Shown here: positions 1-64,000 of the stretch, piece by piece | How the letters are laid out: each line of letters begins with the position of its first letter | Numbering within the stretch: position 1 is the stretch's first letter | Assembly (NCBI GenBank): GCA_018920305.1 | Contig: JAHLMO010000001.1 | Span: 101,926 to 165,925, forward strand | From: Candidatus Aenigmatarchaeota archaeon | Lineage (GTDB): Archaea; Aenigmatarchaeota; Aenigmatarchaeia; CG10238-14; SpSt-28 | Length of the DNA stretch: 64,000 nt | Direction of reading: 5' to 3' | Notes under the pieces: model-generated | What the model was told of the DNA's origin: nothing | Seen by the model: the letters and a program-made list of their open reading frames with translations, nothing else | The model's database searches: none | Translations under genes and position numbers: made by a program

Positions 1-954
1 AATTTTGTTGAATTAGAAACTGTATTTAGAAAACATTTTCATAAGGGTTTTTTAGGCTTTATTTTTAGTATTTTATATCCAAATTTTATAACTTTGGTAA
101 AAGGGAGAAAATATGACGTAATTCATGCAACCTCTCCAGAATTAGCATTTATTGCATCAATTTTTTACAGAAAAAAACTTGTCGTTACTTTTCACGACTT
201 GTTTCCCATTACACATTATAAAAAATTAAAATATAAAGTTGGAATATTAACACATTTATTCTCTTATATTATTTGGAAAATCGCAACAAGAGCAAAAATA
301 ATTGTTGCAAATTCATCACTAACAAAAGAGTATATTGATAAAGTTTTTCATAGAAAAAATAATATTGTGGTAATTAGTGAAGGTGTTAATGAAAATATCA
401 AACAAATAACTGAAAAAAACCATATATTAACTCTTTGTTTTGTTGGAAACTTGTCTTATAGAAAAAGAGTTGATATTGCTATAAAACTATTTAGAAAAAT
501 TAGTAAAAAAGAAAAATGTAAGTTAATAATTGTTGGTGGAAAATTAAAATCTTTATATCAAGTAAATTTTAACTTAGATGAAATTAATGAAAAAAACATT
601 GAAATCTATGATAAAGTTAATGAGGAAAAATTAATAGAAATTTACAGTAAATCTCATTTTTTAATTTTTCCATCGATAATAGAAGGTTTTGGTTTACCGA
701 TTTTAGAAGCTATTAGATGCAAGACTTTGCCTATTACTTTTAAATTTTCAGAAATCCCAAAAGAAGTTAAAAAATTTTCTATAGAGTGTAAGAATTTAGA
801 TGATGCTGCAAAAAAAATAACTAATTTATGGAAAAATAAAAAAAGATTTGAACATATCGCTAATAAATTTTATAAGTTATCTTTAAAATTTGACTGGAAA
901 AAAACATGCAATGAATACTTAAAAATATACAAAAAAGTTGCTAATTATGGGTAA
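1..954 (+). CDS. Glycosyltransferase family 4 (GT-B fold), 5'-partial. The reading frame is open from base 1, so the gene starts upstream of the window.
   Basis: C-terminal GT1/GT4 signature (FPSIIEGFGLPILEAI, i.e. the E-G-F-G-L motif). No in-frame stop lies between base 1 and the TTG at 94, so the ORF-track start is an artefact. Confidence 0.6.
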   Translation, partial: NFVELETVFRKHFHKGFLGFIFSILYPNFITLVKGRKYDVIHATSPELAFIASIFYRKKLVVTFHDLFPITHYKKLKYKVGILTHLFSYIIWKIATRAKIIVANSSLTKEYIDKVFHRKNNIVVISEGVNENIKQITEKNHILTLCFVGNLSYRKRVDIAIKLFRKISKKEKCKLIIVGGKLKSLYQVNFNLDEINEKNIEIYDKVNEEKLIEIYSKSHFLIFPSIIEGFGLPILEAIRCKTLPITFKFSEIPKEVKKFSIECKNLDDAAKKITNLWKNKKRFEHIANKFYKLSLKFDWKKTCNEYLKIYKKVANYG

Positions 955-1948
955 AATTGAAGAAATTATAAAAATTTTAAAAGAGAGGTTTAACCTTAGT
1001 GAAGAAAAAATTAGATATGAAATTAAAGAAAAACTATATGAATTTGGTGGACTAATAAGCGAAGAAGGTGCTGCCATATTAGTAGCGAGAGAATACGGAA
1101 TTGACATTAGAGAAATTAAAACTTTCTCATTTTTAAGCGAATTGGTTAGTGGAATGAGAAATGTAAATGTAAGAGTTAAAGTCTTTAAATCATTACCCCT
1201 AAAAGAATTTGAAAGAAAAGATGGAACAAAAGGATATGTTAAAATATTTTTAGTTGGAGATTCCTCAGATATTGCAAGATTAGTTTTTTGGAATGAATTT
1301 GCTGAAGAAACAGAGAATATGAAAATTAAAGATGGTGATATTTTAAAAATATATAATGCGAGAACAAAAGAAAATGTCTTTGGAGAAATTGATATAATAG
1401 TTGATAAAAATACTTATATCGAATTTGATAATAAAGATGATTTACCTAGCATAGATGTTTTATTAGAAAAATACTCAAAAGACAAATATCAAAGATTAGA
1501 ATCTTCATTAGATTCTATAGGTCATTATGAAGTTGTTGGAATTATCTCAGCAATATACGGAAATAATTTTTTCTTTAAGACTTGTCCAATATGTGGAAAT
1601 AAAGTTGGTAAAAAAGAGGAAAAATATTTTTGTGATTTGCATGGTGAAATAGAACCAAAAAATTCACTTTTTTTAAGATTTGAAGTAAATACATTTAATG
1701 GAAATTTGAGAGCTGTAGCATTTAGGGAAGTTGCAGAAAAAATTGTAGAAATTAAAACAGAAGAGCTAGAAAAATTTGAAAATTTAAAAGAATTCTTAGA
1801 AAATCTATTACTAGGTAAAATCGTATTAATAAGAGGAAGAGCTAGAAAAAACAAATTTTTAAATGTTATAGAATTGGTTGTTAACGAAGTTGAAGACGTT
1901 AATATTGAAAAAGAAATTGAAAAATTAATTCAGTCTATAGAAAATTAA
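947..1948 (+). CDS. rpa: Replication protein A (RPA-like ssDNA-binding protein) with an OB fold and a C4 zinc ribbon.
   Basis: OB-fold block [14 protein letters not shown]...[29 protein letters not shown]. Zinc ribbon CPICGN...CDLHGE. ATG at 947 lies just after the TTG at 938 used by the track. It overlaps the GT4 stop and is followed directly by radA. Confidence 0.7.
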
Positions 1949-1953
1949 ATATT

Positions 1954-2910
1954 ATGGAGGAAGAAAGAATTTCACTTAAAGATATTAAAGGTATTGGACC
2001 AAAAATTTTGAAAAGATTAGAAGAATTAAAAATTAACGATCCAATGATTATAGCGATGAGTAATCCAAAAGAATTATCTGCAATATTAGATATTGGTGAA
2101 GAAAAAGCAAAAGAAATTATCGAAAGTGTAAGAGAAGCTTTAGGTTTTAAGTTAGAAACTGCTGATAAAGTATTAGAAAGAAGAATGAAAATGAGAAAAA
2201 TTACAACTTCTTCAAAAGCATTAGATGAACTACTTGGTGGTGGTATTCCTACACAAGCAATAACAGAAGCTTTTGGAATGTTTGGTAGTGGAAAAACTCA
2301 GCTTGCATTTCAGCTCGCAATTAATGTTCAATTACCAGAAGAACAAGGCGGATTAGAGAGAGCTTGTTTGTTTATAGATAGCGAAGGTACATTTAGTCCT
2401 GAAAGAATAGTAGAAATAGCGAAAAATAGAGGATTAGATGCTGATAAAATTTTAAAAAATATTTATGTTGCAAGAGCTTATAGCAGTGAACATCAAATAC
2501 TTTTAGTTGAAAGAGCAGCTGAAATTATTAAAGAAAAAAACATCGGATTAATAATAGTAGATTCTATAACATCTCATTTTAGAGTTGATTATACAGGAAG
2601 GGGGGAATTAGCAGAAAGACAACAAAAATTAAACAAACACTTACATCAGCTACAAAGATTAGCGGATGCATTTAATTTGGCTGTTTATATTACAAATCAA
2701 GTAATGGCAAGACCAGATATTATATTCGGTGATCCGACACAACCTGTTGGTGGTCACGTTTTAGCGCATATCTCATTTTATAGAATTTATTTAAGAAAAT
2801 CAAAACAAAATTTAAGAATAGCAAGATTAGTTGATGCACCTAATTTACCTGAAAGAGAAGTTGTTTTTCAAATAACTGAAAAAGGAATTGAAGATTATGA
2901 AGAAAAATGA
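1954..2910 (+). CDS. radA: DNA repair and recombination protein RadA (RecA/Rad51 family).
   Basis: N-terminal HhH ([14 protein letters not shown]). Walker [22 protein letters not shown]. Walker [12 protein letters not shown]. 318 aa. Confidence 0.9.
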
Positions 2911-3512
2911 TTATATATAGAGGTGCTGAAGCCATAATAGAAAAGATAGACGAAAATACAATTGTGAAAAAAAGAATAGAAAAAAAGTATAGATTAAGAG
3001 AAATAGATGAAAAATTAAGAAAGGAAAGAACAAAAAAAGAAGTTAAGTTTTTAAGAGAAGTTAGAAGACTAGGAATTAATGTCCCTAAAGTTTTAGAAGT
3101 TAGTGATTTCGAGTTTAAAATGGAATATATAAACGGAAAAAAATTAAAAGATGTTTTAAATAAAGAAAATTTTAAGTTTTTTGCAGAAGAAATAGGAAAG
3201 ATTGTCGCGAGCTTACATTTACATAATATAGTTCATAATGATTTAACCCTATCTAACATGATTTTCTATGAAAGTAAGATTTATTTAATAGATTTCGGTC
3301 TAGCAAATTATTCTGTTTCGATTGAAAATAAAGCAGAAGATATTTTAACACTTTATTATTCAATAAAATCTCTTTTCCCAGAAATATATGAAGAATTTTT
3401 TAGAGTTTTTAAAGATATTTACAAGATGTTATATCCTAATGGTAATAATGTTATAGAAAGAATGAAAGAAATATTAAAAAGGGGGAGATATTCGATAAGG
3501 GATAATGGCTAA
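2907..3512 (+). CDS. bud32: Bud32/PRPK-type small protein kinase (KEOPS subunit, Kae1-associated kinase).
   Basis: Short RIO/Bud32-like kinase of about 200 aa. Catalytic loop [11 protein letters not shown] and IDFGLA (DFG). The start overlaps the radA stop. Confidence 0.6.
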
Positions 3513-3774
3513 AAAATCTTTTGCAGAAGTATTATTTAAAGATAAACCTTTAAAAGTACTTTTAGTACTATCTGATGGTATTCCAAAAAATATTACACAA
3601 ATATATAAAAAAGTAAGAACAACTTATTCGCATACATTGAATATTCTTAAAAATTTTTACGAATTAGGAATAATAGAATTTGAAAAAGTAGGAAGAAATA
3701 AAGTTGTTAGATTATCAAAAAAAGGAGAAAAAATTATTGAAATTATCAAAAAAATTTTAGTGTATTTAGATTAA
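3505..3774 (+). CDS. Small putative winged-helix DNA-binding protein.
   Basis: 89 aa and basic. Pattern resembles a small wHTH regulator (ITQIYKKVRTTYSHTLNILKNFYELGIIEFEKVGRNKVVRLSKKG). No specific family recognised. Confidence 0.35.
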   Translation: MAKKSFAEVLFKDKPLKVLLVLSDGIPKNITQIYKKVRTTYSHTLNILKNFYELGIIEFEKVGRNKVVRLSKKGEKIIEIIKKILVYLD

Positions 3775-3795
3775 TTTTAAATTAATTTCAAAACT

Positions 3796-3918
3796 TTTTT
3801 ATGAAGTTTCAGACATTTTTTATGAACATTCAAATATTTTTTATGAAGTTTCAAACATTTTTTGTGAAATTTCTGATATTTTTTATGAACATTCAAATAT
3901 TTTTTATGAAGTTTCAAA
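3796..3918. repeat. Six tandem degenerate 20-21-bp direct repeats, consensus TTTTTATGAAnnTTCAnAnAT.
   Basis: Read directly: tttttatgaagtttcagacat / tttttatgaacattcaaatat / tttttatgaagtttcaaacat / tttttgtgaaatttctgatat / tttttatgaacattcaaatat / tttttatgaagtttcaaata. Confidence 0.8.
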
Positions 3919-4191
3919 TAATTATTAGAGTAGCTATATAGTGTATGTAAAAATTGTTGAACCGCTATATAGTTTTTTGATCAACTTTAATTTTTTAAAA
4001 TTATTAATTAATATAACAGTGTAATATTTTAGTTATTATTTATAGGTAAATATAAACTTATAGTTATAGTTAGGATCAACTTTTCAGAATTTGTTTTATT
4101 ATATCTTAATTTTATTTTAGTTTTTTAATATTAAATCATTACTCAAAAAGGAATTGGAAAGTTCATAAAAATAGGCTAGATTTAATTATTT

Positions 4192-4458
4192 ATGAAGAGA
4201 GGAAGACCCTCAAAGAGATTCGAGATATATAGATTAATAGAAGAATATTTTAAGGAAAATCCTTTTCCATCTAACATAAACAGAATTTTAAGATATATCT
4301 ATGAAAAAACAGAACGAAAATATAGTTGGAATACAATTAAAAAATACTTAGAAGAGCTAACTAAGTTAGATAGGATTAAAAAAATAAAATTACCACACTC
4401 TAAAATAAAAGAAAAGGAGGGTTTGACATTATATTACTTAGAAGTAAAAAATGAATAG
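4192..4458 (+). CDS. Small basic protein with an N-terminal AT-hook (KRGRPSKR).
   Basis: N-terminus MKRGRPSKRF carries the GRP AT-hook core. 88 aa, Lys/Arg-rich. First gene downstream of the tandem-repeat array. Confidence 0.35.
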   Translation: MKRGRPSKRFEIYRLIEEYFKENPFPSNINRILRYIYEKTERKYSWNTIKKYLEELTKLDRIKKIKLPHSKIKEKEGLTLYYLEVKNE

Positions 4459-5425
4459 AATATTAGAACTAATGAAAAAGGGTTACTTTGTTCAAGATCC
4501 ACAGATACTTTCATTATTGAACGATGAAGAATTCGAAAGATTTTTATTTTTTTTACCGAAATCAAACGAACCGAAAATCTTAAAAAAGGAAGATGTTATT
4601 ACTTTTTTGCAAAAAATAAGTAAAAAGATTTCTATTAGAATTTTAGAACCTCAAATAAAACAAAAGATATCGAACTTAGATTTACTGAACATTTTAAGAG
4701 AAAGATATAATTTTTTATCATCAATTATAAAAAAGAAGCTTTTATTTTTTAATTTAATTTCTATAAACAAAATTTCGAAAAAATATAGAACATTCTCTCT
4801 TATAGGTATGGTTTATGAAATTGATGGTAAAAAAATTACGATAGATGATTTATCATCAAAAATAGATGTTTGGATAGAAGATGAGGAAAAATTAAAATTA
4901 ATAGAGGAAGATTGTGTTATCGGAGTTAAATGCTATTGGAAAGATGATGAAATTTATGCTAATGAGGTTATTTTTCCAGAATTTGAAGAAAAAAACAATT
5001 TAGAAGAAATAAAAGAACTTAGAATAGGGATTTTTAATAGAGACATAGATACAGATGCTGATGTTATTATACAGCTAGATAGGGAAACTAAAATCTCTAA
5101 AAATAAATTATATGTTAACTCTTCTTTTCCTGTTCACCAAATTTATGTTAATAACTCATTAATATTGTTGGTAGATATCAGACATGTAAACTTTAGTATA
5201 GAAAAATTCCTAAAGTTAAGATTAGTTACTTCTAAATCGAGCAAAATATTAGATTTTGGTGGAGATTTTTTCTTAATAAAAGATAAACCAAGTTTAATTA
5301 TAACTTTAAATTCTGATAGAGAAGAAATAAATAAAATAAATGATATTTTTTTGATAAGTCTAGCTAATTCATTAGAAAATAACTATCTTATTGATTTAAA
5401 AGAAGAAATCTTTATCAAAATCTAA
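4451..5425 (+). CDS. Hypothetical protein of 324 aa, co-directional with and immediately upstream of polB.
   Basis: Long ORF with typical coding composition and no recognisable motif. Its start overlaps the preceding gene by 8 nt. Confidence 0.3.
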   Translation: MNRILELMKKGYFVQDPQILSLLNDEEFERFLFFLPKSNEPKILKKEDVITFLQKISKKISIRILEPQIKQKISNLDLLNILRERYNFLSSIIKKKLLFFNLISINKISKKYRTFSLIGMVYEIDGKKITIDDLSSKIDVWIEDEEKLKLIEEDCVIGVKCYWKDDEIYANEVIFPEFEEKNNLEEIKELRIGIFNRDIDTDADVIIQLDRETKISKNKLYVNSSFPVHQIYVNNSLILLVDIRHVNFSIEKFLKLRLVTSKSSKILDFGGDFFLIKDKPSLIITLNSDREEINKINDIFLISLANSLENNYLIDLKEEIFIKI

Positions 5426-5480
5426 ATTAACTATAATAAAGGATAGAAAAAAATATTTGAGGGTAGAACAAAAAAATATC

Positions 5481-8195
5481 ATGAATGTTAAATTTTTTCT
5501 TTTAGATGTTGATTATGACATTGTTGATGACAGACCGATAATTAGAATTTTTGGAAGAGATGAAAATGGAAGTTCTGTAACAATTTTTGTTAAAGATTTT
5601 TTCCCATATTTTTATGTAAAAGTTAAAGATGAAGAAAAATTTCTAGAATTCTTAGAAAAAAATTTTAAAAATTTAATAGTTAAGGTCGATACTGTAGAAA
5701 AGTTTTTACCAATAGGTTATCAAGAAAGGAAAACTAGATTATTTAGAATATTCTTAAAAAATCCATCAAAAGTTCCTTTAGTTAGAGAAGAATTAATGCT
5801 ACAAGATTTCGTTGAAAATACGTACGAAGCTGATATTCTTTTTAAGTATAGGTTTATGGCAGATAAAGATCTTAGTGGCTGTAAATGGTACGAAGTAGAG
5901 GGAACTTTTGTCAATAATACAAGTGTTGTGTTTACAAATAAAAAAATAGAAGCACTAAATATTAAAGAAATAGATCGTAATGAAATTCCTAAGTTTAAGA
6001 TTTTATCAATTGATATAGAAGTAGCCAATAAAGAAGGTATTCCAGATCCAAAAACACATCCAATTAGTATAATTTCATTGGCTTTTTATCCAGAATATAA
6101 TGGAATGAGAAATTTAGTCTTAATATCTAAAAGGGTAAATGTAAATTTAGAATATGTTTTATCGTTTGAAAACGAGAAGAAAATGTTAGAAAGTTTTATT
6201 AATATAATTAAAGATTATGATCCAGACTTTATAATTGGATATAACATTAACAATTTTGATATCCCTTATATAATCGAAAGATTAAAACAAAACAAAATAA
6301 AACCATATTTAGGAAGAGCAAAAAAAGTTGCAAAAAGTCAAAGAATAAGCGAAGAGAGATATAAAAATACTATTGTGGGGAGAGTAATCATAGATTTTTA
6401 TGATATTTTAAAAGAATTTTCTAAAAAAGGTATGTTTAAGACAAAAAGATTAGGTTTAGGTGATGTAGCAAAAGTATTAATAGGTAGAGGAAAAGAAGAT
6501 GTAGAACATAGTGAAATAATCAAACTATGGAATGGAGATGAAAAAGATTTAGTAAGGCTTATAAATTATGCAAAAACAGATGCAGAATTAGTTTTAGAAA
6601 TAATGCTTAGTAAAGATTTTATTTCTCAATACATAGAAATATCTAGGTTAAGTGGCTTATTATTACAAGATACTTTATCTGGTTCTGAATCTTCTAGAAT
6701 AGAACAATTTCTTCTAAAAGAGTTTAATAAAAACGATTTTGTAATTCCTAACAAACCAAACAAAAGAGAATTAAAAGAAAGAGAAAAACAAGAAGTTAAA
6801 GGTGCTATAGTTTTAGAACCAAAAATAGGTTTGCATGAATTTGTTGCTTATCTCGATTTTAAATCTCTATATCCAAGTATAATAATAGAATATAACATTT
6901 GTCCAACAACTTATTTAAAAAATAGAAAAGAAGGATTGGATTTAATTATATCTCCAATTAATACATATTTTGTTTCAAAAAACGTTAGAGAGGGAATATT
7001 TCCAAGAGTTTTAAAGAGATTAATAGAAGAAAGAGACAAGATTAAAAAAATAATGAAAGATGAGAAAGATCCAAACAAAAAGATTTTACTAGAAGCAAAA
7101 CAATTGGCACTAAAATTATTGGCGAACGCATTTTATGGATATACTGGATTTTTAAAAGCTAGATTTTTTGTAGCTGATATAGCAAATACTATAACAGCTT
7201 ATGGAAGATACTGGATTACTAATGTTAAAAAATTTGCCGAAGAAATAGGATATGAAATTGTTTATGGTGATACAGATTCAATAATGGTAAAAACGAATGC
7301 AAAAAGTTTAGAAGAGGCTTTCAAAATTGGAACAGAATTAGAAAAATTAATTAATTCAAAAACACCTCAAAACATTAAGATGAAAATAGAGGGAATAATG
7401 AAAAAAATTCTTTTCGTAGCAAAAAAGAAGTATGTTGGTTATTTGTTTGAAAGCGAAAATGATAATGGTAAAATAGTAATGAAAGGAATTGAAACTATAA
7501 GAAGGGATTGGTGCGAATTAGTTTCAGAAACTTTATCAAAAGTTATAGAAATTTTATTGATTACTGGAAGTGAAAGAGAAGCTTTTGAATACGTTAAAGA
7601 AGTTTTTAGAAAGTTGAAAAATAATGAAATAGATGTAGAAAAACTTGCTATTGTTAAATCAATTTCAAGACCTCTTAACAAATATAAGGGTCAGCAACCT
7701 CATATAGAACTTGTTAAAAAAATGATGAGAAGAGGGGATCCAAATATTCCTGGAGTAGGAGATAGAGTTAGTTATGTTATAGTTGCTGGTCCACAAAAGA
7801 TTGTTGAAAGAGCAGAGAGTGTTGAATATGTAAAAAAATATAAAATACCAATTGATGCTGAATACTATATTTATCATCAGTTATTACCACCTCTAGAAAG
7901 AATATTTAATGCTATTGGAATAACACCTTCTCAATTTATTACAGGCACTAAACAGAAATCTATTATTGGTATTTTACTTCAAAACGGAAATGGAACTAAT
8001 AAAAATCAATCTAATGTGGTTATTAAAGAGGGATTTGTTAATGAAATAAATATAAAGGAACTTGTTGGATTTATGTGTAGTAAGTGTAATAGCGTTTATA
8101 AAAGAATGCCATTAAGTGGAGTATGTAATTTGTGTAATGGAGAAATTGTTTTTTATTCTGCTAATGCGAAATCAAAGATTATTTCATTAAATTAA
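5481..8195 (+). CDS. polB: Family B DNA polymerase (PolB).
   Basis: Exonuclease motifs (FDIET-like ILSIDIEV, YNINNFDIPYI). Polymerase motifs DFKSLYPSII, KLLANAFYGY and YGDTDS (IVYGDTDSIMV). C-terminal CxxC...CxxC zinc module. No intein. ATG at 5481; the track uses an upstream TTG at 5457. Confidence 0.9.
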   Translation: MNVKFFLLDVDYDIVDDRPIIRIFGRDENGSSVTIFVKDFFPYFYVKVKDEEKFLEFLEKNFKNLIVKVDTVEKFLPIGYQERKTRLFRIFLKNPSKVPLVREELMLQDFVENTYEADILFKYRFMADKDLSGCKWYEVEGTFVNNTSVVFTNKKIEALNIKEIDRNEIPKFKILSIDIEVANKEGIPDPKTHPISIISLAFYPEYNGMRNLVLISKRVNVNLEYVLSFENEKKMLESFINIIKDYDPDFIIGYNINNFDIPYIIERLKQNKIKPYLGRAKKVAKSQRISEERYKNTIVGRVIIDFYDILKEFSKKGMFKTKRLGLGDVAKVLIGRGKEDVEHSEIIKLWNGDEKDLVRLINYAKTDAELVLEIMLSKDFISQYIEISRLSGLLLQDTLSGSESSRIEQFLLKEFNKNDFVIPNKPNKRELKEREKQEVKGAIVLEPKIGLHEFVAYLDFKSLYPSIIIEYNICPTTYLKNRKEGLDLIISPINTYFVSKNVREGIFPRVLKRLIEERDKIKKIMKDEKDPNKKILLEAKQLALKLLANAFYGYTGFLKARFFVADIANTITAYGRYWITNVKKFAEEIGYEIVYGDTDSIMVKTNAKSLEEAFKIGTELEKLINSKTPQNIKMKIEGIMKKILFVAKKKYVGYLFESENDNGKIVMKGIETIRRDWCELVSETLSKVIEILLITGSEREAFEYVKEVFRKLKNNEIDVEKLAIVKSISRPLNKYKGQQPHIELVKKMMRRGDPNIPGVGDRVSYVIVAGPQKIVERAESVEYVKKYKIPIDAEYYIYHQLLPPLERIFNAIGITPSQFITGTKQKSIIGILLQNGNGTNKNQSNVVIKEGFVNEINIKELVGFMCSKCNSVYKRMPLSGVCNLCNGEIVFYSANAKSKIISLN

Positions 8196-14179: not shown

Positions 14180-14283
14180 AGCCCCGTCGTCTAGTGGCCA
14201 AGGATGCCGGGCTTTGGTCAAGCCAAAGCTTTGAAAATAATGAAAGAAACCCGGAGACCCCGGTTCGAATCCGGGCGGGGCTA
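14180..14283 (+). tRNA. tRNA-Gln (anticodon UUG) carrying a 31-nt intron at the canonical 37/38 position.
   Basis: Acceptor AGCCCCG/CGGGGCT. Anticodon stem CCGGG/CCCGG. Loop CUUUGG interrupted by tcaagccaaagctttgaaaataatgaaagaa. T-arm CCCGG-TTCGAAT-CCGGG. No encoded CCA. Confidence 0.8.
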
Positions 14284-34329: not shown

Positions 34330-34445
34330 ATCAAAAAAATTTTAATTTTTATTTAATTTTCTAAAAAAATTTTAATTTATAAACATTTTTCTAAAAAATT
34401 TTTAATTTATAAACTAAAATCTAAAAAAATTTTTTAATTAAAAAA
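34330..34445. repeat. Degenerate tandem A/T repeats (unit about ctaaaaaaatttttaatttataaac, about 3 copies) upstream of the S-layer-like gene.
   Basis: Read directly: ...ctaaaaaaattttaatttataaac / atttttctaaaaaatttttaatttataaac / taaaatctaaaaaaattttttaatta. Confidence 0.7.
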
Positions 34446-34566: not shown

Positions 34567-36708
34567 ATGACGCTCGTAAAAAAACTTGGTGCAATAGCAC
34601 TTGGAAGCATTTTATTAGCTTCAACTCTAGTACCTTTAGCAGCTGCACAATTAGATGTTAAAACAGCTGTAGAAAGATTAGGAGCTCCTGGAGATTATTG
34701 GATAGTAGTTGGAAGAGATGCACTAGTTGATGATATTATATCTGCTATTGATTTAGCAACAAGATTTGCAGGATTTGCAACAACAGAAAAACAATTAACT
34801 GGAACAAAAGAATATGAAATAAAAGGATGGGATGTAAGATTAAATCTAGATTCTGATGATTTAGAAACTGGATTACCAGGATTTATAAGTATATATGATA
34901 AAAATGTATTGCCACAATTAAAAGATAATTTAGTAGTTAGAAACGGAACAAGATCAATTAGCGGAGTTGCAGAATATGTAAAATTAGGAAAAGATAATGG
35001 CGATAAAGCTATTCAATTAGCTTCAGAAATTTATGCTAATTCAACATTAGCTATAGCTTTAAGTCCACAAGGTGAAGGTAAGTATTACTTAAAATATTAT
35101 GTAGCATTAGATGATAATACTTGTAAAAACAGAATTTATGCAGATGCTACTCAAGGTTTATTAGTAAGATTTAAATTAGCTGGTAAAGATGTTGTAATTT
35201 CTGAAGTAGGAAATAATGAAGTAAAATTATTAAGTGGTTTTGGACCAGAATGGATAAATGCAGGTGATGTAAGAGATATTACAGGAACATCTTATAAATT
35301 AAGATTAGATAATGTAATTGGTTTTGGAAGCGATGCAGTAGTTCAATTATCTGTAATTGATGAAAGAGGAGTAGCATATCCATTAGTATTATATCCAGGA
35401 CAATATGATGTTGAACCAACAACAGAAGTAAAAGTAGTTGTTTTAAGAGCATTTGGATTTGGAGACACAAAAATGGCATATTTAGTCGCTGGAGTTGAAA
35501 GTGAAGTTAAAGATGGAGATAGATTAGACAATATATTCAAATGGTATGTTGCAACTTGTAGTGGTACAGGTGTTAATTACTTAAAAGAAATAGGATACAA
35601 ATTAGCTCCAAATGAAACAGTATATTTAGAACCAGGACAATCAATAGCATTTCCAAATAATTACTTGAAATTACAATACTTAGGATTAACATTAACTGAA
35701 AAAGATTATTTAGCTACAGTAAACTTTAGAGTTGTTGATATGCCAACTGATAAAGATAAATACTATGGAGTATGTTCTGATCTTAGTTCTGTAAGTGGTG
35801 TTGGAGTAGAAATTAGTGGAGTACCATTATATACGAAAGAAAAAGTCTATGACAAGCTATATGCAATTCATGCTACTTGTAGCAGCCAAAATATTTCAGC
35901 AATAGTTGCATATGATTCAAAAGATCAAAAATATGTAAAGTTAGATCTAGATAACTATCCTGTAACTGTTGGACCAACAGGTTTAAGTTTAGGTAGTAAT
36001 TTAGAGGGTGATGATGATGATAAAGACATTAAGGTAACACTATCAAAAAGTGGAAGTAATCTAGATATAATAGTTGATGATGAAGATAAAGTAATTACAA
36101 ATGTAGTTGGAGCAAGGAATAGCGATTTCCAAATAGGAGTAGATAATTTAATAAGTAATTTCAATAATACTTGGGTATACACAGCATTTGGTCACAAAAT
36201 ATTTGTATCTAGCGATGCAAAATCATTAACATTAAAGTGGACTCCAGTTCAAGGATATGCAAGAGTTGTATTAGGAGAAGCTACTGAAAAAGTAGCTGGC
36301 GGAGAAGTAGTTAGAGTATTAGATGTAAATAGATTACAAGTTCCAGTTGCAAAATTAGATACAGAGGTTAATTTAGCTACAGCAGATAAAAATCTAGTAG
36401 TTGTTGGAGGTCCATATGTTAACAGAGTTGCAGCAGCATTATTAAATGTACCATATAGAGATGATAGTGCAATAAGAGCATTATATGGAGATTTAGGAGC
36501 AATAGAAAGAGGATTAATAAAAGCTTTTGATTTAGGAGGAGGAAAAGTTGCATTATTAGTAGCTGGATGGAGAGCAGAAGATACAAGATTAGCAGCTAGT
36601 GTATTACAACAATACGAAAGATTTGCAGATAGATTAGCAGCTGGAGATACATTAATAATTGGAGGAACTAGAGAAGCTCCAACAATAGAAGCAAAAACTT
36701 CCAAGTAA
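34567..36708 (+). CDS. Secreted cell-surface protein, S-layer protein candidate.
   Basis: N-terminal signal peptide (MTLVKKLGAIALGSILLASTLVPLAAAQ). 713 aa. Composition shifts to A/G/V/D/T/L-rich and K-poor compared with the other proteins in the window. Long structured upstream region and a T-rich terminator. Confidence 0.55.
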   Translation: MTLVKKLGAIALGSILLASTLVPLAAAQLDVKTAVERLGAPGDYWIVVGRDALVDDIISAIDLATRFAGFATTEKQLTGTKEYEIKGWDVRLNLDSDDLETGLPGFISIYDKNVLPQLKDNLVVRNGTRSISGVAEYVKLGKDNGDKAIQLASEIYANSTLAIALSPQGEGKYYLKYYVALDDNTCKNRIYADATQGLLVRFKLAGKDVVISEVGNNEVKLLSGFGPEWINAGDVRDITGTSYKLRLDNVIGFGSDAVVQLSVIDERGVAYPLVLYPGQYDVEPTTEVKVVVLRAFGFGDTKMAYLVAGVESEVKDGDRLDNIFKWYVATCSGTGVNYLKEIGYKLAPNETVYLEPGQSIAFPNNYLKLQYLGLTLTEKDYLATVNFRVVDMPTDKDKYYGVCSDLSSVSGVGVEISGVPLYTKEKVYDKLYAIHATCSSQNISAIVAYDSKDQKYVKLDLDNYPVTVGPTGLSLGSNLEGDDDDKDIKVTLSKSGSNLDIIVDDEDKVITNVVGARNSDFQIGVDNLISNFNNTWVYTAFGHKIFVSSDAKSLTLKWTPVQGYARVVLGEATEKVAGGEVVRVLDVNRLQVPVAKLDTEVNLATADKNLVVVGGPYVNRVAAALLNVPYRDDSAIRALYGDLGAIERGLIKAFDLGGGKVALLVAGWRAEDTRLAASVLQQYERFADRLAAGDTLIIGGTREAPTIEAKTSK

Positions 36709-43342: not shown

Positions 43343-44317
43343 CTATATTGAAGTTAATATGTTTTTAATTATTAGATTTTTTGTTTTTTCTACAAAACTA
43401 TCTTTTATTAGATTTATATTATCGACATACGAATGATAGAACGAATAGAAAAAGTATAAATTTTTATTGTTTATAGATGTAAATAAATACGTTTTATTCT
43501 TAATTTTTTCAAAGTTTAACAAAGTAAAAGCTTCATATACAAGGTCATCATTATAAATAATAGAGCATTTATCGAATCCTATACAATCTACAACAAATAT
43601 CTTTTTTGATTTAATCAGAACATCTAAGTTTTCTTTTTCAAAGACTCTGTATCCATAACACCAATAATAAGGTTTATCGTAGGATAATTCTGTTGAGCCA
43701 GAAAGAACAATAAGAACTTCTTTTAATATTTTATCTCTCGTTTTTTTACTCAATATAATATCCAATAAGGTAGATATGGAAGTAGAATTATCTACTACTC
43801 CATTTAGTACCGTATCATAATGAGAAAAGATTAAAATCTTTGGGTTTTTAGTATTTCCTATTAAAATGTTTCCAGTTTTATATTTTTCTTTTTTGATTTT
43901 AACGTAACCTTCAATAACTTCTGCATCTAATACTTTTTTAACATCCTCTCTTCTTATATTTATTGAAGGAGAAAAGTAAAAAGTTGCCAATGAAAAATCT
44001 TTACAATATGGATTGTAAGATATGCTTGGAGTATTGAAATTTTCCTTAATAATTATATTGCTTATCAAATTTTTTTCTTCAATTTTTCCACTTACGAAAG
44101 AAGCTGGAATAGACTCTATTTCTTTACCATCTATATACAATCTACTTTTTCCATTTGGTATTGTATTTTCGAACTTTTGTATTTCGAAATATATATTATT
44201 CTCTTCTAGTATTTCAGAGATAGTTCTAATAACTTCTTTTTCTTTCTTTCCTCTTATAGGATACTGTTTAATTAAAAAATTGAGAATAGATTTCCAAGTT
44301 ACTTCTTTCATAGCCAT
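43343..44317 (-). CDS. M28/M20-like metallopeptidase-fold protein.
   Basis: Blocks ILIFSHYDTV (H-x-D) and VDNSTSISTLLDI (D-D/N-x-S-G-like), in the order expected for M28-family zinc ligands. Rest of the protein not recognisable. Confidence 0.35.
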   Translation of the reverse strand: MAMKEVTWKSILNFLIKQYPIRGKKEKEVIRTISEILEENNIYFEIQKFENTIPNGKSRLYIDGKEIESIPASFVSGKIEEKNLISNIIIKENFNTPSISYNPYCKDFSLATFYFSPSINIRREDVKKVLDAEVIEGYVKIKKEKYKTGNILIGNTKNPKILIFSHYDTVLNGVVDNSTSISTLLDIILSKKTRDKILKEVLIVLSGSTELSYDKPYYWCYGYRVFEKENLDVLIKSKKIFVVDCIGFDKCSIIYNDDLVYEAFTLLNFEKIKNKTYLFTSINNKNLYFFYSFYHSYVDNINLIKDSFVEKTKNLIIKNILTSI

Positions 44318-45549
44318 TCTTCAATAATTATATTGTCTTTCGATAAATTTTTAAATTTTATTTTTTTATTTTCGAATGCAGTTTCGAAAACTTTGATGCT
44401 AATTGTTTGTTGCAAATCTCCTATAGATAAGTTATCTATGTCTATTTGATTTAATAGTTTGTCGACATTTTCTTTAATCATATTCAAAAGTTGATGCGAA
44501 AAATATGGTTTATAAATTAATTCATAGGCATCTTTGCTTAAATTTCCTATGAGTATATTCTTTGTTCTTTGTGATAGTTTTAATAAGGTAGAATCGTTTG
44601 GATATTCGAGCTTTACAATAAAATTAGTGATGAATTTAGGATCTATTTTTAATAACCATTCAAAAAATTTATTTTCAGCATTATTTTCTCTTTCGTAAGT
44701 ATCTATCATTGTTTTACTAAATCTTAATAAACCAGTTATATACGCTGGATAATAATCGTTAGCTGAAGGTCTCCAATATAAACCTCTTATTAAAGTGTCT
44801 AAATCTTCTTTACTTTTGATTTCAATTTCCTTAACAGTTTTTTCTTCTTTATTATAGTAATAAACATATTTTGGCAATTTTTTGCTATGGCGCCATATCG
44901 TATACATGCCTAAAGAAAACAAACTAGAAACATCTATAGGCTGTATGTTGTAACTTTTCCTTATAATGCTATGATAAAACTCTGGAAGCGTAAGATTAGT
45001 TGTACTTCTTATAGTAATAAATTCATATGGCATACTAAGTGGTATTTCTGCAGCCTTTAATTTTTTTATTACAATGACTTCATCTTTTCTATTCTTATCT
45101 ACTTCTAATGTTGCAAAGATTGGATTAAATTTATTAAAATCCTCTGGATAATTTTCTATCGCACTTTTTCTAGCTTCGAGTGTTACAAAAGAATAAAGTG
45201 GAGATAGATTATTTTTGTCATTATTAACATATTTTTCTAGATGCATTGTAATAATAGTTTGAAGAGATGGTGCTATAATACAATCATGAAATCCAAAAAA
45301 ACTTGTTTGTGAATTTTCGTAATTAGTTTGTTGCTTTAGTATTTTTGATTTGAGATCTTCTAACTCTCCAATTACATTATTTATTTCGTTTTCTTCTACG
45401 TAATATATTTTTCTTAATACTTCTTGTTGTATTTTTTTCACTCTTTCTTCATATTCTTTACTCTCTACATATCTTTTAAATTCTGAAACTCTTATATTTC
45501 TATTAAAGTATAATTCATTAATTAGAACTGTTAGTGAGCTGTAAAACAA
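44308..45549 (-). CDS. Hypothetical protein (413 aa), co-operonic with the peptidase-like gene.
   Basis: Long ORF with no motif recognised. 10-nt overlap with the downstream gene. Confidence 0.3.
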   Translation of the reverse strand: MFYSSLTVLINELYFNRNIRVSEFKRYVESKEYEERVKKIQQEVLRKIYYVEENEINNVIGELEDLKSKILKQQTNYENSQTSFFGFHDCIIAPSLQTIITMHLEKYVNNDKNNLSPLYSFVTLEARKSAIENYPEDFNKFNPIFATLEVDKNRKDEVIVIKKLKAAEIPLSMPYEFITIRSTTNLTLPEFYHSIIRKSYNIQPIDVSSLFSLGMYTIWRHSKKLPKYVYYYNKEEKTVKEIEIKSKEDLDTLIRGLYWRPSANDYYPAYITGLLRFSKTMIDTYERENNAENKFFEWLLKIDPKFITNFIVKLEYPNDSTLLKLSQRTKNILIGNLSKDAYELIYKPYFSHQLLNMIKENVDKLLNQIDIDNLSIGDLQQTISIKVFETAFENKKIKFKNLSKDNIIIEEWL

Positions 45550-45586
45550 AAACTCGAATGAATATATTTCTCTTTCAATGATTTTT

Positions 45587-45619
45587 GGGGGGTTTTTGGC
45601 AATTTAGTGCCAACCCCCC
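45587..45619. other. GC hairpin GGGGGG-TTTT-TGGCA-ATTTAG-TGCCA-A-CCCCCC in a divergent intergenic region.
   Basis: Read directly. G6/C6 outer stem plus TGGCA/TGCCA inner stem, in otherwise AT-rich DNA about 40 nt upstream of the minus-strand ORF start. Confidence 0.3.
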
Positions 45620-61093: not shown

Positions 61094-62374
61094 TTATGTT
61101 TTTTCTTTATAACTTAGACCAAAAAGAGTTTTAACTTTTTGTCTAGTTTCTTTATAATTAACTATAGGCGGAAAATATCCTGGTATTCTATAAGTTATGG
61201 GATCGTGCAAATAAATACAAGGGACATCTTTTAATTCTGGTATATAAGTTTTGATGTATTCACATTTTGGATCTAATTCCTTGGATTGTTTAACTGGGTT
61301 AAAAATTCTTATAGCATAATCTGTTCCTACAGAAGCTACCCATTGCCAATTTCCAACGTTTACAACTTCGTCATAATCTATAAGATGCTTACTGAAGAAT
61401 TTTTCTCCCAGGCGCCAATCTCCTCCTAAATCTTTTGTGAAAAAACTAGCTAGTAACATTCTAAGTCTGTTGTGAATCCATTTTTCTGATTTTAATTGTC
61501 TTATAGCAGCATCAATAATAGGATATCCAGTTTCTCCATTATAAAAAGCATCTAAGCATAAATTATCCCATTTTATATTTCTTCTATCTTCTCTAAGCTC
61601 TAAGTTGTTCATATACGGATATAAATTTTTTAATGCATACCAATATTCTCTCCAAGCAAGCTCTTTTACAAATTTTTCACTAATTTTGCCCAAATTATAA
61701 ATATGGCGTATCGATAATATACCAAATCTAATATATGGAGATAAGCGTGTAGATCCGTTTAAAAATTTTCTTAATTTTCTATACTTCGAAAAATCATATT
61801 TCAAAAATTTTTCTGCATCGTATGCATTAAATTTATTAATTTCGTATTTTAACTTCTTAGTTGCTTCTTGCCAAGTTGGTTCTTCTTTTGGATTAAGAAA
61901 TTTAACGTTAAATTTCCCTATAATTTCTAAATCTAGTTTTTCTTTCCATTTTTTGTAAAAACTCGAAAATGACCAAAAATTTTTTATTTTTCTAAAATCA
62001 GCTAAAAAATTATCGAAGATTTTAACAAATCTCACTTTTTTATTAATAGCCAGCGTTTCAACTTTTTTTAATCTTTCTTCCCCACTCCAAGTAAAGGCCT
62101 CAGCTGTAACAATTGCTTTTGGTTTATATTTTTCTATTAGATAATCAAAAATTTCTAAAGTCTTACCTACGTAAACTTTTAGTGGAATTTCTTCAGAAAG
62201 TTTTTGTAGTGCAGTTATTATAAAACCTAGTCTTAAATCGTAAGCTTCAAATTTATCGAGTATATCAGTATCTATAATAAATATTGGTAGTACTTCTCCC
62301 AATTTAGATGCTGCGTATAGAGCTCTATTATCATATACTCTAAGATCCCTTTTAAACCAAAATATGATTGTCAT
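61094..62374 (-). CDS. phr: DNA photolyase / cryptochrome-family flavoprotein.
   Basis: N-terminal FWFKRDLRVYDNRALY. FAD-binding blocks (TGYPIIDAAIRQL, HNRLRMLLASFF, NWQWVASVG). Start placed at MTIIFWF. The track's upstream 22 aa are hydrophobic and atypical. Confidence 0.75.
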   Translation of the reverse strand: MTIIFWFKRDLRVYDNRALYAASKLGEVLPIFIIDTDILDKFEAYDLRLGFIITALQKLSEEIPLKVYVGKTLEIFDYLIEKYKPKAIVTAEAFTWSGEERLKKVETLAINKKVRFVKIFDNFLADFRKIKNFWSFSSFYKKWKEKLDLEIIGKFNVKFLNPKEEPTWQEATKKLKYEINKFNAYDAEKFLKYDFSKYRKLRKFLNGSTRLSPYIRFGILSIRHIYNLGKISEKFVKELAWREYWYALKNLYPYMNNLELREDRRNIKWDNLCLDAFYNGETGYPIIDAAIRQLKSEKWIHNRLRMLLASFFTKDLGGDWRLGEKFFSKHLIDYDEVVNVGNWQWVASVGTDYAIRIFNPVKQSKELDPKCEYIKTYIPELKDVPCIYLHDPITYRIPGYFPPIVNYKETRQKVKTLFGLSYKEKT

Positions 62375-62662
62375 AAAAAATAATTGTATTATATGTATGT
62401 TAGAATAACTTGAAAGGGAGATAGAAATTATAGAAAGCATTATTATAGTAGTTTTGTTCGTGATTTCGATGTTTTTATTATTTATAAAATAATAGAAACC
62501 GCACTTTCAGAAGTTGGTATGTTCCTGATGATTGAATTCTTAGTGATATTTTCTGTTTTTGTTTACGTTTTGAGATAGATTAATAAAAATTCTGAATAAA
62601 ATTAGAAAATTTGAGCGAATCTCAATATAAAATAGGATAAAAAAATAAAACTATGAATTGGT

Positions 62663-63193: not shown

Positions 63194-64000
63194 GTTAGAA
63201 TCAGACTAATGTAGGATTGAAAGTCATTTGCAAATCTCCACGCCCCATTTATTTTATTTAGTTAGAATCAGACTAATGTAGGATTGAAAGTCACTCAAAT
63301 ATTTAATATCAAAATCTTGCAAAATGTTAGAATCAGACTAATGTAGGATTGAAAGTTTCAATTTTCCCATTATTACCCCTTACTCCAGCAAGTTAGAATC
63401 AGACTAATGTAGGATTGAAAGAATTATTATCAATTATAAATTCGTTATTAATTTTTACTGTTAGAATCAGACTAATGTAGGATTGAAAGCTGAAATGTAT
63501 TGGTTTAATATTTTTATAGTTTTTTTGTTAGAATCAGACTAATGTAGGATTGAAAGATATTAAAAAACTCATTGCCAGCAAAAAACATACTCAAGTTAGA
63601 ATCAGACTAATGTAGGATTGAAAGTAAATATTTAATAAAAATATTATTTATTATGGTTTCTGGTTAGAATCAGACTAATGTAGGATTGAAAGAATTATTA
63701 TATCAAAATCTCTTATTTCTACATCTTTTATAGTTAGAATCAGACTAATGTAGGATTGAAAGAAAGTAAAAATTCATTATTTCCTTCTATTTTCATATTC
63801 GTTAGAATCAGACTAATGTAGGATTGAAAGTAACATTATCGTAATGTTATAATATTTAAAGATTTTTATGTTAGAATCAGACTAATGTAGGATTGAAAGG
63901 AATGTAAACGAAAGAATAAAAACGAAATTGATTGAAGTTAGAATCAGACTAATGTAGGATTGAAAGTTTTTCGTTTGGAGAATAAACATTTACGAAATTA
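63194..64000 (+). CRISPR. CRISPR array with 30-bp repeat GTTAGAATCAGACTAATGTAGGATTGAAAG. 12 complete repeats, spacers of 35-40 bp, and a 13th spacer truncated by the window end.
   Basis: Identical repeats start at 63194, 63261, 63326, 63392, 63460, 63527, 63595, 63663, 63733, 63801, 63870 and 63937, all read directly. The repeat ends in ATTGAAAG (the 8-nt crRNA 5' tag produced by Cas6 in type I/III systems). An AT-rich leader lies 5', so the array is transcribed on the plus strand. Confidence 0.95.

Follow-up and report, generated by a model that had tools for sequence, protein, structure and literature searches.

A two-turn-phased repeat array in front of a winged-helix, DP1-like and PolB operon of Aenigmatarchaeota as a candidate autoregulatory operator

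What is the role of a tandem repeat array that stands directly in front of the genes for a replicative DNA polymerase? The question is raised by a locus of Candidatus Aenigmatarchaeota archaeon (contig JAHLMO010000001.1 of assembly GCA_018920305.1), in which a 417-nt intergenic region holds an array of 21-bp repeats and is followed by genes for an 88-aa protein, for a protein resembling DP1, the small subunit of PolD, and for a family-B DNA polymerase (PolB). The whole stretch of DNA analysed, 64 kb in length, is called the window; coordinates are positions within it, and labels such as L001, L010 or L205 designate related loci. A preliminary description had taken the repeats, together with a dedicated DNA-binding protein gene next to RPA, RadA and PolB, for a replication-origin-like, partition or regulatory element. 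The regulatory part of this proposal was favoured, as the repeat motif tracks the gene of the 88-aa winged helix-turn-helix (wHTH) protein and is fixed over its core promoter and start, whereas the origin and partition parts were not. From the sequence comparisons described below, we consider it probable that the repeats form a phased operator array through which a wHTH family carrying an AT-hook-like arm autoregulates the operon wHTH - DP1-like - PolB.

The array and its promoter-proximal copies

In the window, Tandem Repeats Finder (TRF) called an array at 3786-3927 with a period of 21, 6.8 copies, 80% matches and a score of 179, and over the same array a super-period of 63 bp (2.2 copies, score 225); the sole tandem repeat of the window with a higher score is the CRISPR array at its end. 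The unit TTTTTTATGAAnnTTCAnAnA is 21 bp long and present in six full head-to-tail copies, in agreement with the six repeats first reported. Every unit carries a GAA-NN-TTC dyad beside a T6 tract, and the 63-bp super-repeat corresponds to units 1-3 and units 4-6. The likeness to iterons was also borne out in form, the repeats being direct, 21 bp long and helically phased. Exact matches to TTTTTATGAANNTTCA number five in the window, all of them inside the array; near gene starts, one further close match was obtained, the inverted copy in front of the 88-aa gene. The sequence TTCATAAAAA occurs 10 times, compared to 3.5 +/- 2.0 expected and with 0 of 100 shuffles reaching 10, and six of these ten copies fall at the array locus. 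Outside this locus, the window has neither clustered nor promoter-placed copies, hence no sign of a regulon. The array as coding repeats was rejected: the 46-aa open reading frames (ORFs) on both strands are by-products of the 21-bp period and, in L010, where the equivalent unit reads ATG AAT TTT TAG, unit lengths of 19-24 bp break the frame.

The window stems from hot-spring DPANN metagenome-assembled genomes labelled Aenigmatarchaeota, one close relative being labelled Nanopusillaceae. The identical 88-aa protein is encoded on nine contigs. In L007 (1130-1195) and L008 the array has 3 units compared to 6 in the window, one 63-bp super-unit fewer in an otherwise near-identical spacer; as the 88-aa protein is identical, array copy number is polymorphic within the species. 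Relatives at 49-70% protein identity all keep the gene order wHTH, DP1-like, PolB together with an upstream array of the same motif, with about 6 copies in L010, about 7 in L014 and L016 and three to four in L012, L018 and L099. The array is present when RadA lies upstream (the window, L010, L014, L016, L103, L138) and also in a Hjc/Metallophos context (L012, L018, L047, L057, L099); the upstream genes of L012, L018 and L019 are those for Hjc, a metallophosphatase and an unrelated 127-aa protein instead of RPA-RadA. As the array stays with the wHTH gene whatever lies upstream, it belongs to the wHTH-polymerase operon and not to the RadA operon. Thus, the proposed linkage to replication and recombination genes holds for PolB, whereas the association with RPA and RadA is incidental because other genes take their place in other lineages. 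The 89-aa wHTH protein encoded upstream in the window was rejected as the binder, since it is missing near the locus in L012, L018 and L019 and is related neither to their 127-aa gene nor to the 88-aa family.

A metagenome locus search with alignment A1 as query (the wide alignment A3 was too diverse) yielded 80 loci with 39-65% protein identity and GC contents of 0.24-0.58, in which the order wHTH, DP1-like, PolB is kept almost wherever the DNA suffices. Arrays were called by TRF in 27 of 75 upstream regions, with a period of 21 in almost all of them, and are also found in genomes of 50-58% GC, for example as four copies of TTTCTATGAACGTTCCAATTC. Public sequencing runs with the locus include SRR17794511-20, SRR27022453 and SRR27170999. 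When site pairs were defined by a 9-mer with one mismatch or fewer, pairs in the same orientation were spaced by 21 bp (32 pairs), 42 bp (28 pairs) or 63 bp (15 pairs) with almost nothing between, and no pairs at these three spacings were present in 112 kb of background. When 77 phased units of 24 lineages were combined in a frequency matrix, the consensus was nAnTTTTTATGAAnTTTCnnAnA. Positions outside the seeded 9-mer were conserved as well (TTC 83-89%, A at +17 83% and A at -2 75%). On the coding strand, the T tract comes first in 65 of the 77 distal units; the promoter-proximal sites are oppositely oriented in 47 of 56 cases.

The positions of the proximal sites are fixed relative to the start codon. 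Across lineages, sense-strand TCATAAA falls preferentially at -13/-14 and -39/-40 relative to the ATG, and these sites often flank a TATA-like box, TTAATAAATA. A frequent layout reads GAAAnnGTCATAAAAA - TTAATAAATATGTAAA - GTCATAAAAA - nnnn - ATG, with one site over the position of the TFB-recognition element (BRE) and the other between the TATA-like box and the start. The TTTATGA found at -3 in the window is likewise found in L138, L139, L157 and L010. At L205 (4960-5010 and 8210-8483), the wHTH gene lies 3.2 kb from DP1-PolB with opposite-strand genes intervening; this wHTH gene retains a perfect palindrome of two half-sites, TTTATGAC-TA-GTCATAA, and no clear site was found before the polymerase genes of this locus.

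The motif is specific for the locus. Of 27 lineages, 17 have its 8-mer in the interval -100..-4 before the wHTH gene, compared to 4 of 139 upstream regions of other genes in the same loci, and by k-mer enrichment the motif was found in 39 of 54 upstream regions compared to 24 of 504 background chunks. In a pattern scan of species representatives, related genomes showed this locus alone among the matches listed, including contigs of 397 kb (JAVYPJ010000001.1), 549 kb (JAWBAK010000001.1) and 802 kb (JAVZHQ010000001.1); in these contigs the array lies near 178.6, 235.6 and 751 kb, respectively. No second array per related genome is among the matches listed, which is not proof of one per genome, and most matches listed are single chance matches in bacteria. 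With 4 occurrences in 139 other upstream regions, the repeat is not scattered through many intergenic regions, the outcome that the preliminary description had set against its own proposal, and a generic promoter element was rejected on the same count. The region does exceed a plain promoter, as had been suggested. A number of bacterial arrays in the scan are unrelated and have no RGRP-wHTH gene nearby (L054, Blastocatellaceae, about 130-330; L098, Lachnoclostridium, about 5060-5260; L100; L105); among them are about 8 copies of a 21-bp unit, TTTTTATGAAGATTCCACAAA, and, beside a tRNA gene, repeats of 10 bp (TATGAACT).

The letters of the unit may also be read as architectural or generic elements: BRE/TATA-like decoys for TBP and TFB, phased T6 tracts for curved DNA or histone positioning, and/or oligo-T terminators. 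Read on the minus strand, the unit (GAAAnTTCATAAAAAA) hardly differs from the proximal promoter element and approaches the succession of an archaeal BRE (GAAA), 2 nt and a TATA-like box; sense-strand T6 tracts recur every two helical turns in 65 of the 77 units, phased A-tracts bend DNA, and a histone gene lies nearby in L001. This reading is nevertheless unlikely. The conserved TCAT/ATGA and TTC letters belong to neither a TATA box nor an A-tract and persist in genomes of 50-58% GC, 135 of the 139 other promoter-like regions in these loci lack the 8-mer, and termination or curvature alone needs neither a GAA-NN-TTC core nor inverted proximal copies at fixed positions.

The winged-helix protein and the operon that it heads

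In the AlphaFold model of the 88-aa protein (pLDDT, the predicted local distance difference test, of 85), residues 1-7 are coil, followed by three helices and a beta-hairpin wing; the succession H1-H2-H3 and wing is, in this model, the fold of winged-helix regulators. The N-terminal arm is predicted to be disordered (mean pLDDT 67 over the first 10 residues compared to about 90 for the domain). Among 20 sequences, G4, R5, P6 and R9 of the arm are invariant, as are S45-W-N-T48 and K51-Y-L in helix 3 and H69-S-K71 at the wing tip. The RGRP arm is kept in distant members, an M[KR]RGRP N-terminus is present in nearly all 80 metagenome loci, and a profile search among 1.84 billion representatives gave 81 clusters of small proteins, most of them with an RGRP start. 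Tandem copies of the winged-helix domain, 3-5 per polypeptide, were observed in P0080 (616 aa), P0082 (455 aa) and P0111 (520 aa).

No Pfam or NCBIfam family was found for the 88-aa protein, the only match being a sub-threshold one to the TBPIP/Hop2 winged helix in Pfam (E = 0.0047); the best structural matches are regulators of the PadR, Fur and ArsR types. Judged by its model and its sequence, the protein belongs to an uncharacterised winged-helix family with an AT-hook-like N-terminal arm. The expectation of a small protein of DNA-binding type beside the array was therefore confirmed, with a predicted winged-helix fold and an RGRP arm. Its designation as an AT-hook protein is fair at the level of sequence, given the RGRP core, basic flanks and predicted disorder, and is better worded as an AT-hook-like arm on a winged helix. 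A mobile-element origin of the family was rejected, as 2.9 million viral contigs yielded a single distant homologue, without PolB. This sole viral relative (L218 4970-5270, on an IMG/VR contig of 48.7 kb) shows 31% identity, reads ...KRGMPEGH...LSWNTIQKYL... and has no adjoining PolB or DP1.

Protein and DNA can be compared in two respects. In the repeat unit, a T5-6 tract lies directly beside the conserved core, an arrangement that would fit minor-groove binding by an AT-hook. Furthermore, residue 50 in helix 3 is associated with the base following TTTTATGA: this base is A in 10 of 13 lineages with K or R at residue 50 and in 6 of 22 lineages with Q (Fisher p = 0.006, uncorrected for phylogeny). 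The association is suggestive of co-variation between the protein and its putative site. Such arms next to a helix-turn-helix (HTH) are known from the GRPR of Hin recombinase and from homeodomain arms, which contact the minor groove, and the RGRP core is that of the AT-hook of HMGA. As in these proteins, the R-G-R-P of the 88-aa family is flanked by K/R, is predicted to be unstructured and directly precedes the HTH, and an A/T tract lies beside the major-groove core of the candidate site; unlike HMGA and Hin, the archaeal protein would carry a single hook fused to a winged helix.

The genes that follow the 88-aa ORF, all on the + strand, are a 324-aa ORF, PolB and a PAP2 phosphatase. The start of the 324-aa ORF overlaps the wHTH stop codon by 8 nt, which suggests translational coupling. 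With profile A2, which includes three distant DP1-like sequences, the 324-aa protein matched DP1 in the PDB (6knb) with E = 1.7e-22; the single sequence matched NCBIfam PRK04036 with E = 1.7e-13, below cutoff, and no Pfam match was obtained. Most of the phosphoesterase region is deleted in this protein, and the orthologue in L019 is annotated DNA_pol_E_B/Metallophos_2. The C-terminus of PolB reads CSKCN...CNLCNG, one CxxC...CxxC motif, and its true start is likely ATG 5481, as in the gene call of L001. The flanking genes were as first described, with RPA-like, RadA, Bud32/RIO-type kinase and 89-aa wHTH genes upstream and PolB, identified by Pfam, downstream. To our knowledge, nothing is known about the control of the PolB-CTD/DP1 pair (CTD, C-terminal domain).

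The 324-aa gene and PolB fit the published pair of a B6 PolB and an inactivated DP1. Aenigmatarchaeota have been reported to encode a B6 PolB with a C-terminal Zn motif plus an inactivated DP1 (Kazlauskas et al. 2020, PMC7544198), and DP1 binds the PolB-CTD of Aenigmatarchaeota by yeast two-hybrid (PMC12680538). As in these descriptions, a PolB ending in CxxC...CxxC adjoins a degenerate DP1 homologue; unlike them, a conserved wHTH gene and a repeat array stand in front here. Neither paper mentions a wHTH gene before the pair, its repeats or a third subunit. Operator arrays and autoregulators are of a known kind, and the PolB-DP1 pair has been published. What appears to be undescribed in the literature searched is the wHTH gene conserved at the head of the operon, together with its motif and the strictly two-turn-phased array with inverted proximal copies.

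The family also varies in its gene content. In L176, as in some lineages, an extra 153-aa gene (5362-5823) lies between the wHTH and DP1-like genes, and the DP1-like protein (381 aa, 5975-7120) has DxH/GD/GHTH phosphoesterase-type motifs, so that the degeneration of DP1 varies by lineage. PolB is 1251 aa long and contains an intein (Intein_splicing and LAGLIDADG matches) in L013 (2863-6618) and L018 (7444-11199). In L014 (10072-11213) and L016 (10059-11200), two genes are inserted between PolB and PAP2, one for a KaiC/RadB-like ATPase of 240 aa and one for a protein of 140 aa.

The close association of the three genes may be accounted for in another way. The 88-aa protein could mainly be a third subunit or DNA tether of PolB-DP1, in loose analogy to eukaryotic Pol delta p66/Pol32 with its winged-helix N-domain; it would then park or load the polymerase at the repeats, and autoregulation would be secondary. 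The three genes are together across the family from 24 to 58% GC, an unusually deep synteny, the wHTH stop overlaps the DP1-like start, and in L205 the polymerase genes are without a site, yet the wHTH gene is still nearby. The two-hybrid interaction (PMC12680538) further indicates that a multi-subunit enzyme exists. We nevertheless consider this possibility very unlikely; the papers on DP1-PolB (PMC7544198, PMC12680538) report no third subunit.

Candidate functions of the array

In the autoregulatory model that we prefer, one factor would bind a site of about 19 bp, A-n-TTTTT-ATGAA-n-TTTC-nn-A, composed of a T tract and an ATGAA..TTC core, and this factor would most likely be the first product of the operon itself, the 88-aa protein. 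Its recognition helix (SWNTxKKYLEEL) and wing (PHSK) would contact the ATGAA..TTC core, and its RGRP arm would enter the minor groove of the adjoining T tract. The distal set would consist of three to seven sites (six here) arranged head-to-tail and exactly two helical turns apart, a spacing that places all of them on the same face of the DNA. One or two opposite sites overlapping the core promoter and the transcription/translation start would make up the proximal set. Given this overlap, occupancy of the proximal sites would repress: TBP/TFB or RNA polymerase would be blocked, so that the operon of the replicative polymerase would be under negative autoregulation. The distal array, being phased, may promote cooperative binding, possibly with looping to the proximal sites, and thereby sharpen or buffer the response. 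Termination by archaeal RNA polymerase takes place at oligo-T; the T6 tracts of the sense strand may thus also terminate read-through from the upstream operon and insulate the polymerase operon. The identity of the binder, repression in preference to activation, and looping are the parts of the model that we infer from sequence. The separation of the genes in L205 makes autoregulation its most secure part, control of the polymerase following from co-transcription. The inversion between distal and proximal sites is consistent, yet unexplained by the model.

Several points weigh against the model. Firstly, the factor could be an unlinked protein, and the 88-aa protein has no obvious dimerisation element. 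Secondly, the other strand of the unit (GAAAnTTCATAAAAA) resembles an archaeal BRE and TATA box, so that the ligand could be TBP/TFB and not a dedicated factor. In some relatives a Shine-Dalgarno-like GGTGA/AGTGA precedes the ATG, which would move the transcription start site further upstream and leave the proximal sites within the 5' untranslated region. Two or more phased distal sites, under a strict definition, are present in only 24 of 54 lineages, so that the array is dispensable in many lineages. Deep phylum-wide DP1-PolB synteny is as typical of a subunit of a complex as of a regulator, and the polymerase genes of L205 appear without the site, so that the protein may regulate only itself. 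Finally, the model leaves the AT-rich island and the second palindrome of the control region unexplained.

Autoregulators with phased sites at their own promoter are known in archaea. Ss-LrpB has three phased boxes at its own promoter, and the Lrp-type site of FL11 is TGAAA-N3-TTTCA. The locus resembles these Lrp systems in its phased sites, its GAA..TTC-type dyad core and the placement of sites over the putative BRE, TATA-like box and transcription start, and cooperative autoregulation would be a further likeness. It differs from them in that the protein has 88 aa and no Lrp/AsnC RAM domain, in that the sites are asymmetric, with a one-sided T tract, and head-to-tail, in that up to seven copies are present and in that the target is a replicative polymerase operon.

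The region has a second conserved element, the palindrome TATAACAGTGTAATA, at the centre of the A+T-richest intergenic stretch. The palindrome is unique in the window at one mismatch or fewer. Of 84 related loci, 31 carry it between array and wHTH gene, at about -110 to -230 from the ATG; an exact TATAACAATGTTATA is found at about -136 in relatives of 50-58% GC. The AT-rich island with its palindrome is retained even in relatives of 58% GC. The layout of a direct-repeat array, an A+T-rich peak and an inverted copy could be that of a chromosomal replication origin or of a dual origin and promoter, in which the repeats would act as iterons for a wHTH initiator or recruiter, the island would unwind and the inverted copy would be an opposing site. 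The locus adjoins replicative polymerase genes, and the matches listed for related genomes hold no second array. In Pyrococcus, oriC lies beside the cdc6-polD cluster, and in Sulfolobus, oriC3 lies beside the winged-helix protein WhiP. In iteron-regulated plasmid replicons, such as those of RepA of pPS10, RepE of F and pi of R6K, iterons are combined with an inverted repeat at the rep promoter through which rep is autoregulated. As in these replicons, head-to-tail repeats (21 bp here and about 17-22 bp there) are in helical phase, copy number is labile, and a winged-helix gene adjoins with an inverted (half-)copy over its promoter, the classic layout of autorepression. In archaeal oriC (Pyrococcus cdc6-polD, Sulfolobus oriC1-3), opposite repeats flank an A+T-rich stretch beside replication genes, an arrangement to which the array, the A+T-rich peak and the inverted copy may correspond.

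An origin at this locus is quite unlikely, however. In 45 loci of 6 kb or more, no Orc1/Cdc6-like gene was found within +/-5-10 kb, ORFs of 300-520 aa with an N-terminal Walker A being RadA only; none was found among the scanned ORFs of the window, and the gene tables of L001, L010, L012, L014, L016, L018 and L019 contain no Cdc6 Pfam families. The unannotated 413-aa ORF of the window (44308-45549) was rejected as Orc1/Cdc6, since it has no Walker A and no Pfam match. Unlike the known archaeal origins with origin recognition boxes (ORB), the locus has no orc1/cdc6 nearby, its repeats are strictly phased and direct, and its proximal sites keep a fixed distance from the start codon. An ORB or G-string consensus is missing, the consensus of the unit being unlike the TTCCAnnGGAAA-type dyad with G-string. 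The nucleotide-exact position of the proximal sites relative to the ATG is a property of promoters and counts against an origin. The length of the spacer that separates the array from the gene varies between about 85 and 270 nt, its sequence is unconserved outside short blocks, copy number is labile, and many lineages are without an array. The genes do not change strand at the site, and GC skew follows the coding strand throughout the window. The 88-aa protein is a single small winged helix with an RGRP arm, in contrast to the two winged-helix domains of Rep (RepA/pi/TrfA type); sequence comparison with Pfam, NCBIfam and PDB gave no match to Rep, and no Orc or Cdt1 family match was obtained. 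Unlike the plasmid replicons, the locus is chromosomal, lies among housekeeping genes and heads a polymerase operon.

An Orc1-independent origin or polymerase-loading site made up of the array, the AT-rich island with its palindrome and the inverted sites, at which the RGRP-armed wHTH, encoded in one operon with the Pol-delta-like PolB-DP1 pair, would be initiator or tether and effectively a third subunit of the polymerase that binds specific DNA, is likewise quite improbable. If either an origin or a polymerase tether were true, the view of replication initiation in these archaea would change; an Orc1-independent origin would bring an iteron/Rep-style logic to a cellular archaeal chromosome, in a lineage whose polymerase resembles the ancestor of eukaryotic replicases.

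Tandem direct repeats immediately 5' of a gene for a small DNA-binding protein could also be a centromere-like partition site bound by the wHTH, as in ParR-parC or TubR-tubC. This is extremely unlikely: no ParA-, ParM- or TubZ-type NTPase gene is adjacent at any locus, the next genes always being DP1-like and PolB, and the KaiC/RadB-like ATPase gene that follows PolB is a lineage-specific feature of L014 and L016. As no NTPase gene adjoins, partition is unsupported.

The preferred reading, autoregulation, bears on a polymerase of wider interest, since discussions of how the eukaryotic Pol alpha/delta/epsilon holoenzymes arose have used the PolB-CTD/DP1 pair of these DPANN archaea as a model. 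The analysis defines a conserved third gene of the operon, a precise 19-bp motif and a strictly two-turn-phased array with copy-number polymorphism between strains. It provides a candidate regulator-operator pair for a replicative polymerase in organisms that are not culturable alone, and what may be a natural example of an AT-hook and wHTH combination acting on a composite site of T tract and major-groove core.

Coordinates and other features of the window

The preliminary description had passed over the inverted proximal copy, the 324-aa DP1-like gene and the palindrome, which are included with the other features in Table 1.

Table 1. Position of the array, the proximal elements and the neighbouring genes in the window
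Feature	Position	Strand	Sequence	Remarks
Upstream operon: RPA-like, RadA, Bud32/RIO-type kinase, 89-aa wHTH	938..3774	+		Neighbour in some lineages only, outside the element
Partial unit (3' half), left edge of array	3786..3794	+	TTTCAAAAC	TRF limits, sequence
Distal array, six 21-bp units	3795..3920	+	TTTTTT-ATGAA-nn-TTCA-nAnA	Sequence, TRF, phasing kept in relatives
Array unit 1	3795		TTTTTTATGAAGTTTCAGACA	T-tract-first
Array unit 2	3816		TTTTTTATGAACATTCAAATA	T-tract-first
Array unit 3	3837		TTTTTTATGAAGTTTCAAACA	T-tract-first
Array unit 4	3858		TTTTTTGTGAAATTTCTGATA	T-tract-first, slightly degenerate
Array unit 5	3879		TTTTTTATGAACATTCAAATA	T-tract-first, sequence as unit 2
Array unit 6	3900		TTTTTTATGAAGTTTCAAATA	T-tract-first
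A+T-richest 60-nt intergenic stretch	3986..4045	.		91.7% AT, centred on palindrome; top 0.4% of the 60-nt windows of the window
Palindrome, second conserved element	4012..4026	.	TATAACAGTGTAATA	Family consensus TATAAC-N3-GTTATA
Short block just 5' of proximal site	4138..4148	+	ATTACTCAAAA	Close-relative alignment A4; also L140, L142, L138
Inverted unit copy	4156..4171	-	GGAAAGTTCATAAAAA (on + strand)	Overlaps BRE/TATA-like region, 21 nt before ATG
Proximal half-site, array orientation	4186..4196	+	TTATTTATGAA	Includes start codon; direct reading
88-aa wHTH protein, putative repeat binder	4192..4458	+		AT-hook-like arm MKRGRPSKR, then winged helix-turn-helix
324-aa degenerate PolD small subunit (DP1) / eukaryotic B-subunit homologue	4451..5425	+		Profile and single-sequence matches
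Family-B DNA polymerase	5457..8195	+		C-terminal CxxC...CxxC; Pfam DNA_pol_B 1.5e-117, exo domain 6.4e-40

Two further candidates in the spacer between array and gene were rejected. The repeats GCTATATAGT and GATCAACTTT, each present twice, are lost already in the closest other species, L103, and do not qualify as functional repeats. A structured RNA was not supported, as there was no Rfam match at gathering thresholds in the window or at E <= 1 in 3700-4260 and the spacer sequence is unconserved.

Elsewhere in the window, a tandem array of a 30-bp unit (34333-34433, 3.4 copies, TRF score 132) lies just 5' of an S-layer-like gene (34567-36708). The sequence GGGGGGTTTTTGGCAATTTAGTGCCAACCCCCC at 45586-45619 forms a hairpin clamped by G6/C6 runs in a genome of 24% GC; it lies in a 280-nt intergenic region between divergent genes, adjoins the 413-aa ORF and has no Rfam match. 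A 104-nt tRNA at 14180-14283 was found by Rfam (50.8 bits) and not by ARAGORN, and is probably an intron-containing tRNA gene. The CRISPR-like array extends from 63392 to 63966 at the end of the window, with the repeat GTTAGAATCAGACTAATGTAGGATTGAAAG and a period of about 67-68 bp; there is no cas gene among the scanned ORFs, and the nearest upstream gene encodes a photolyase (61094-62440).

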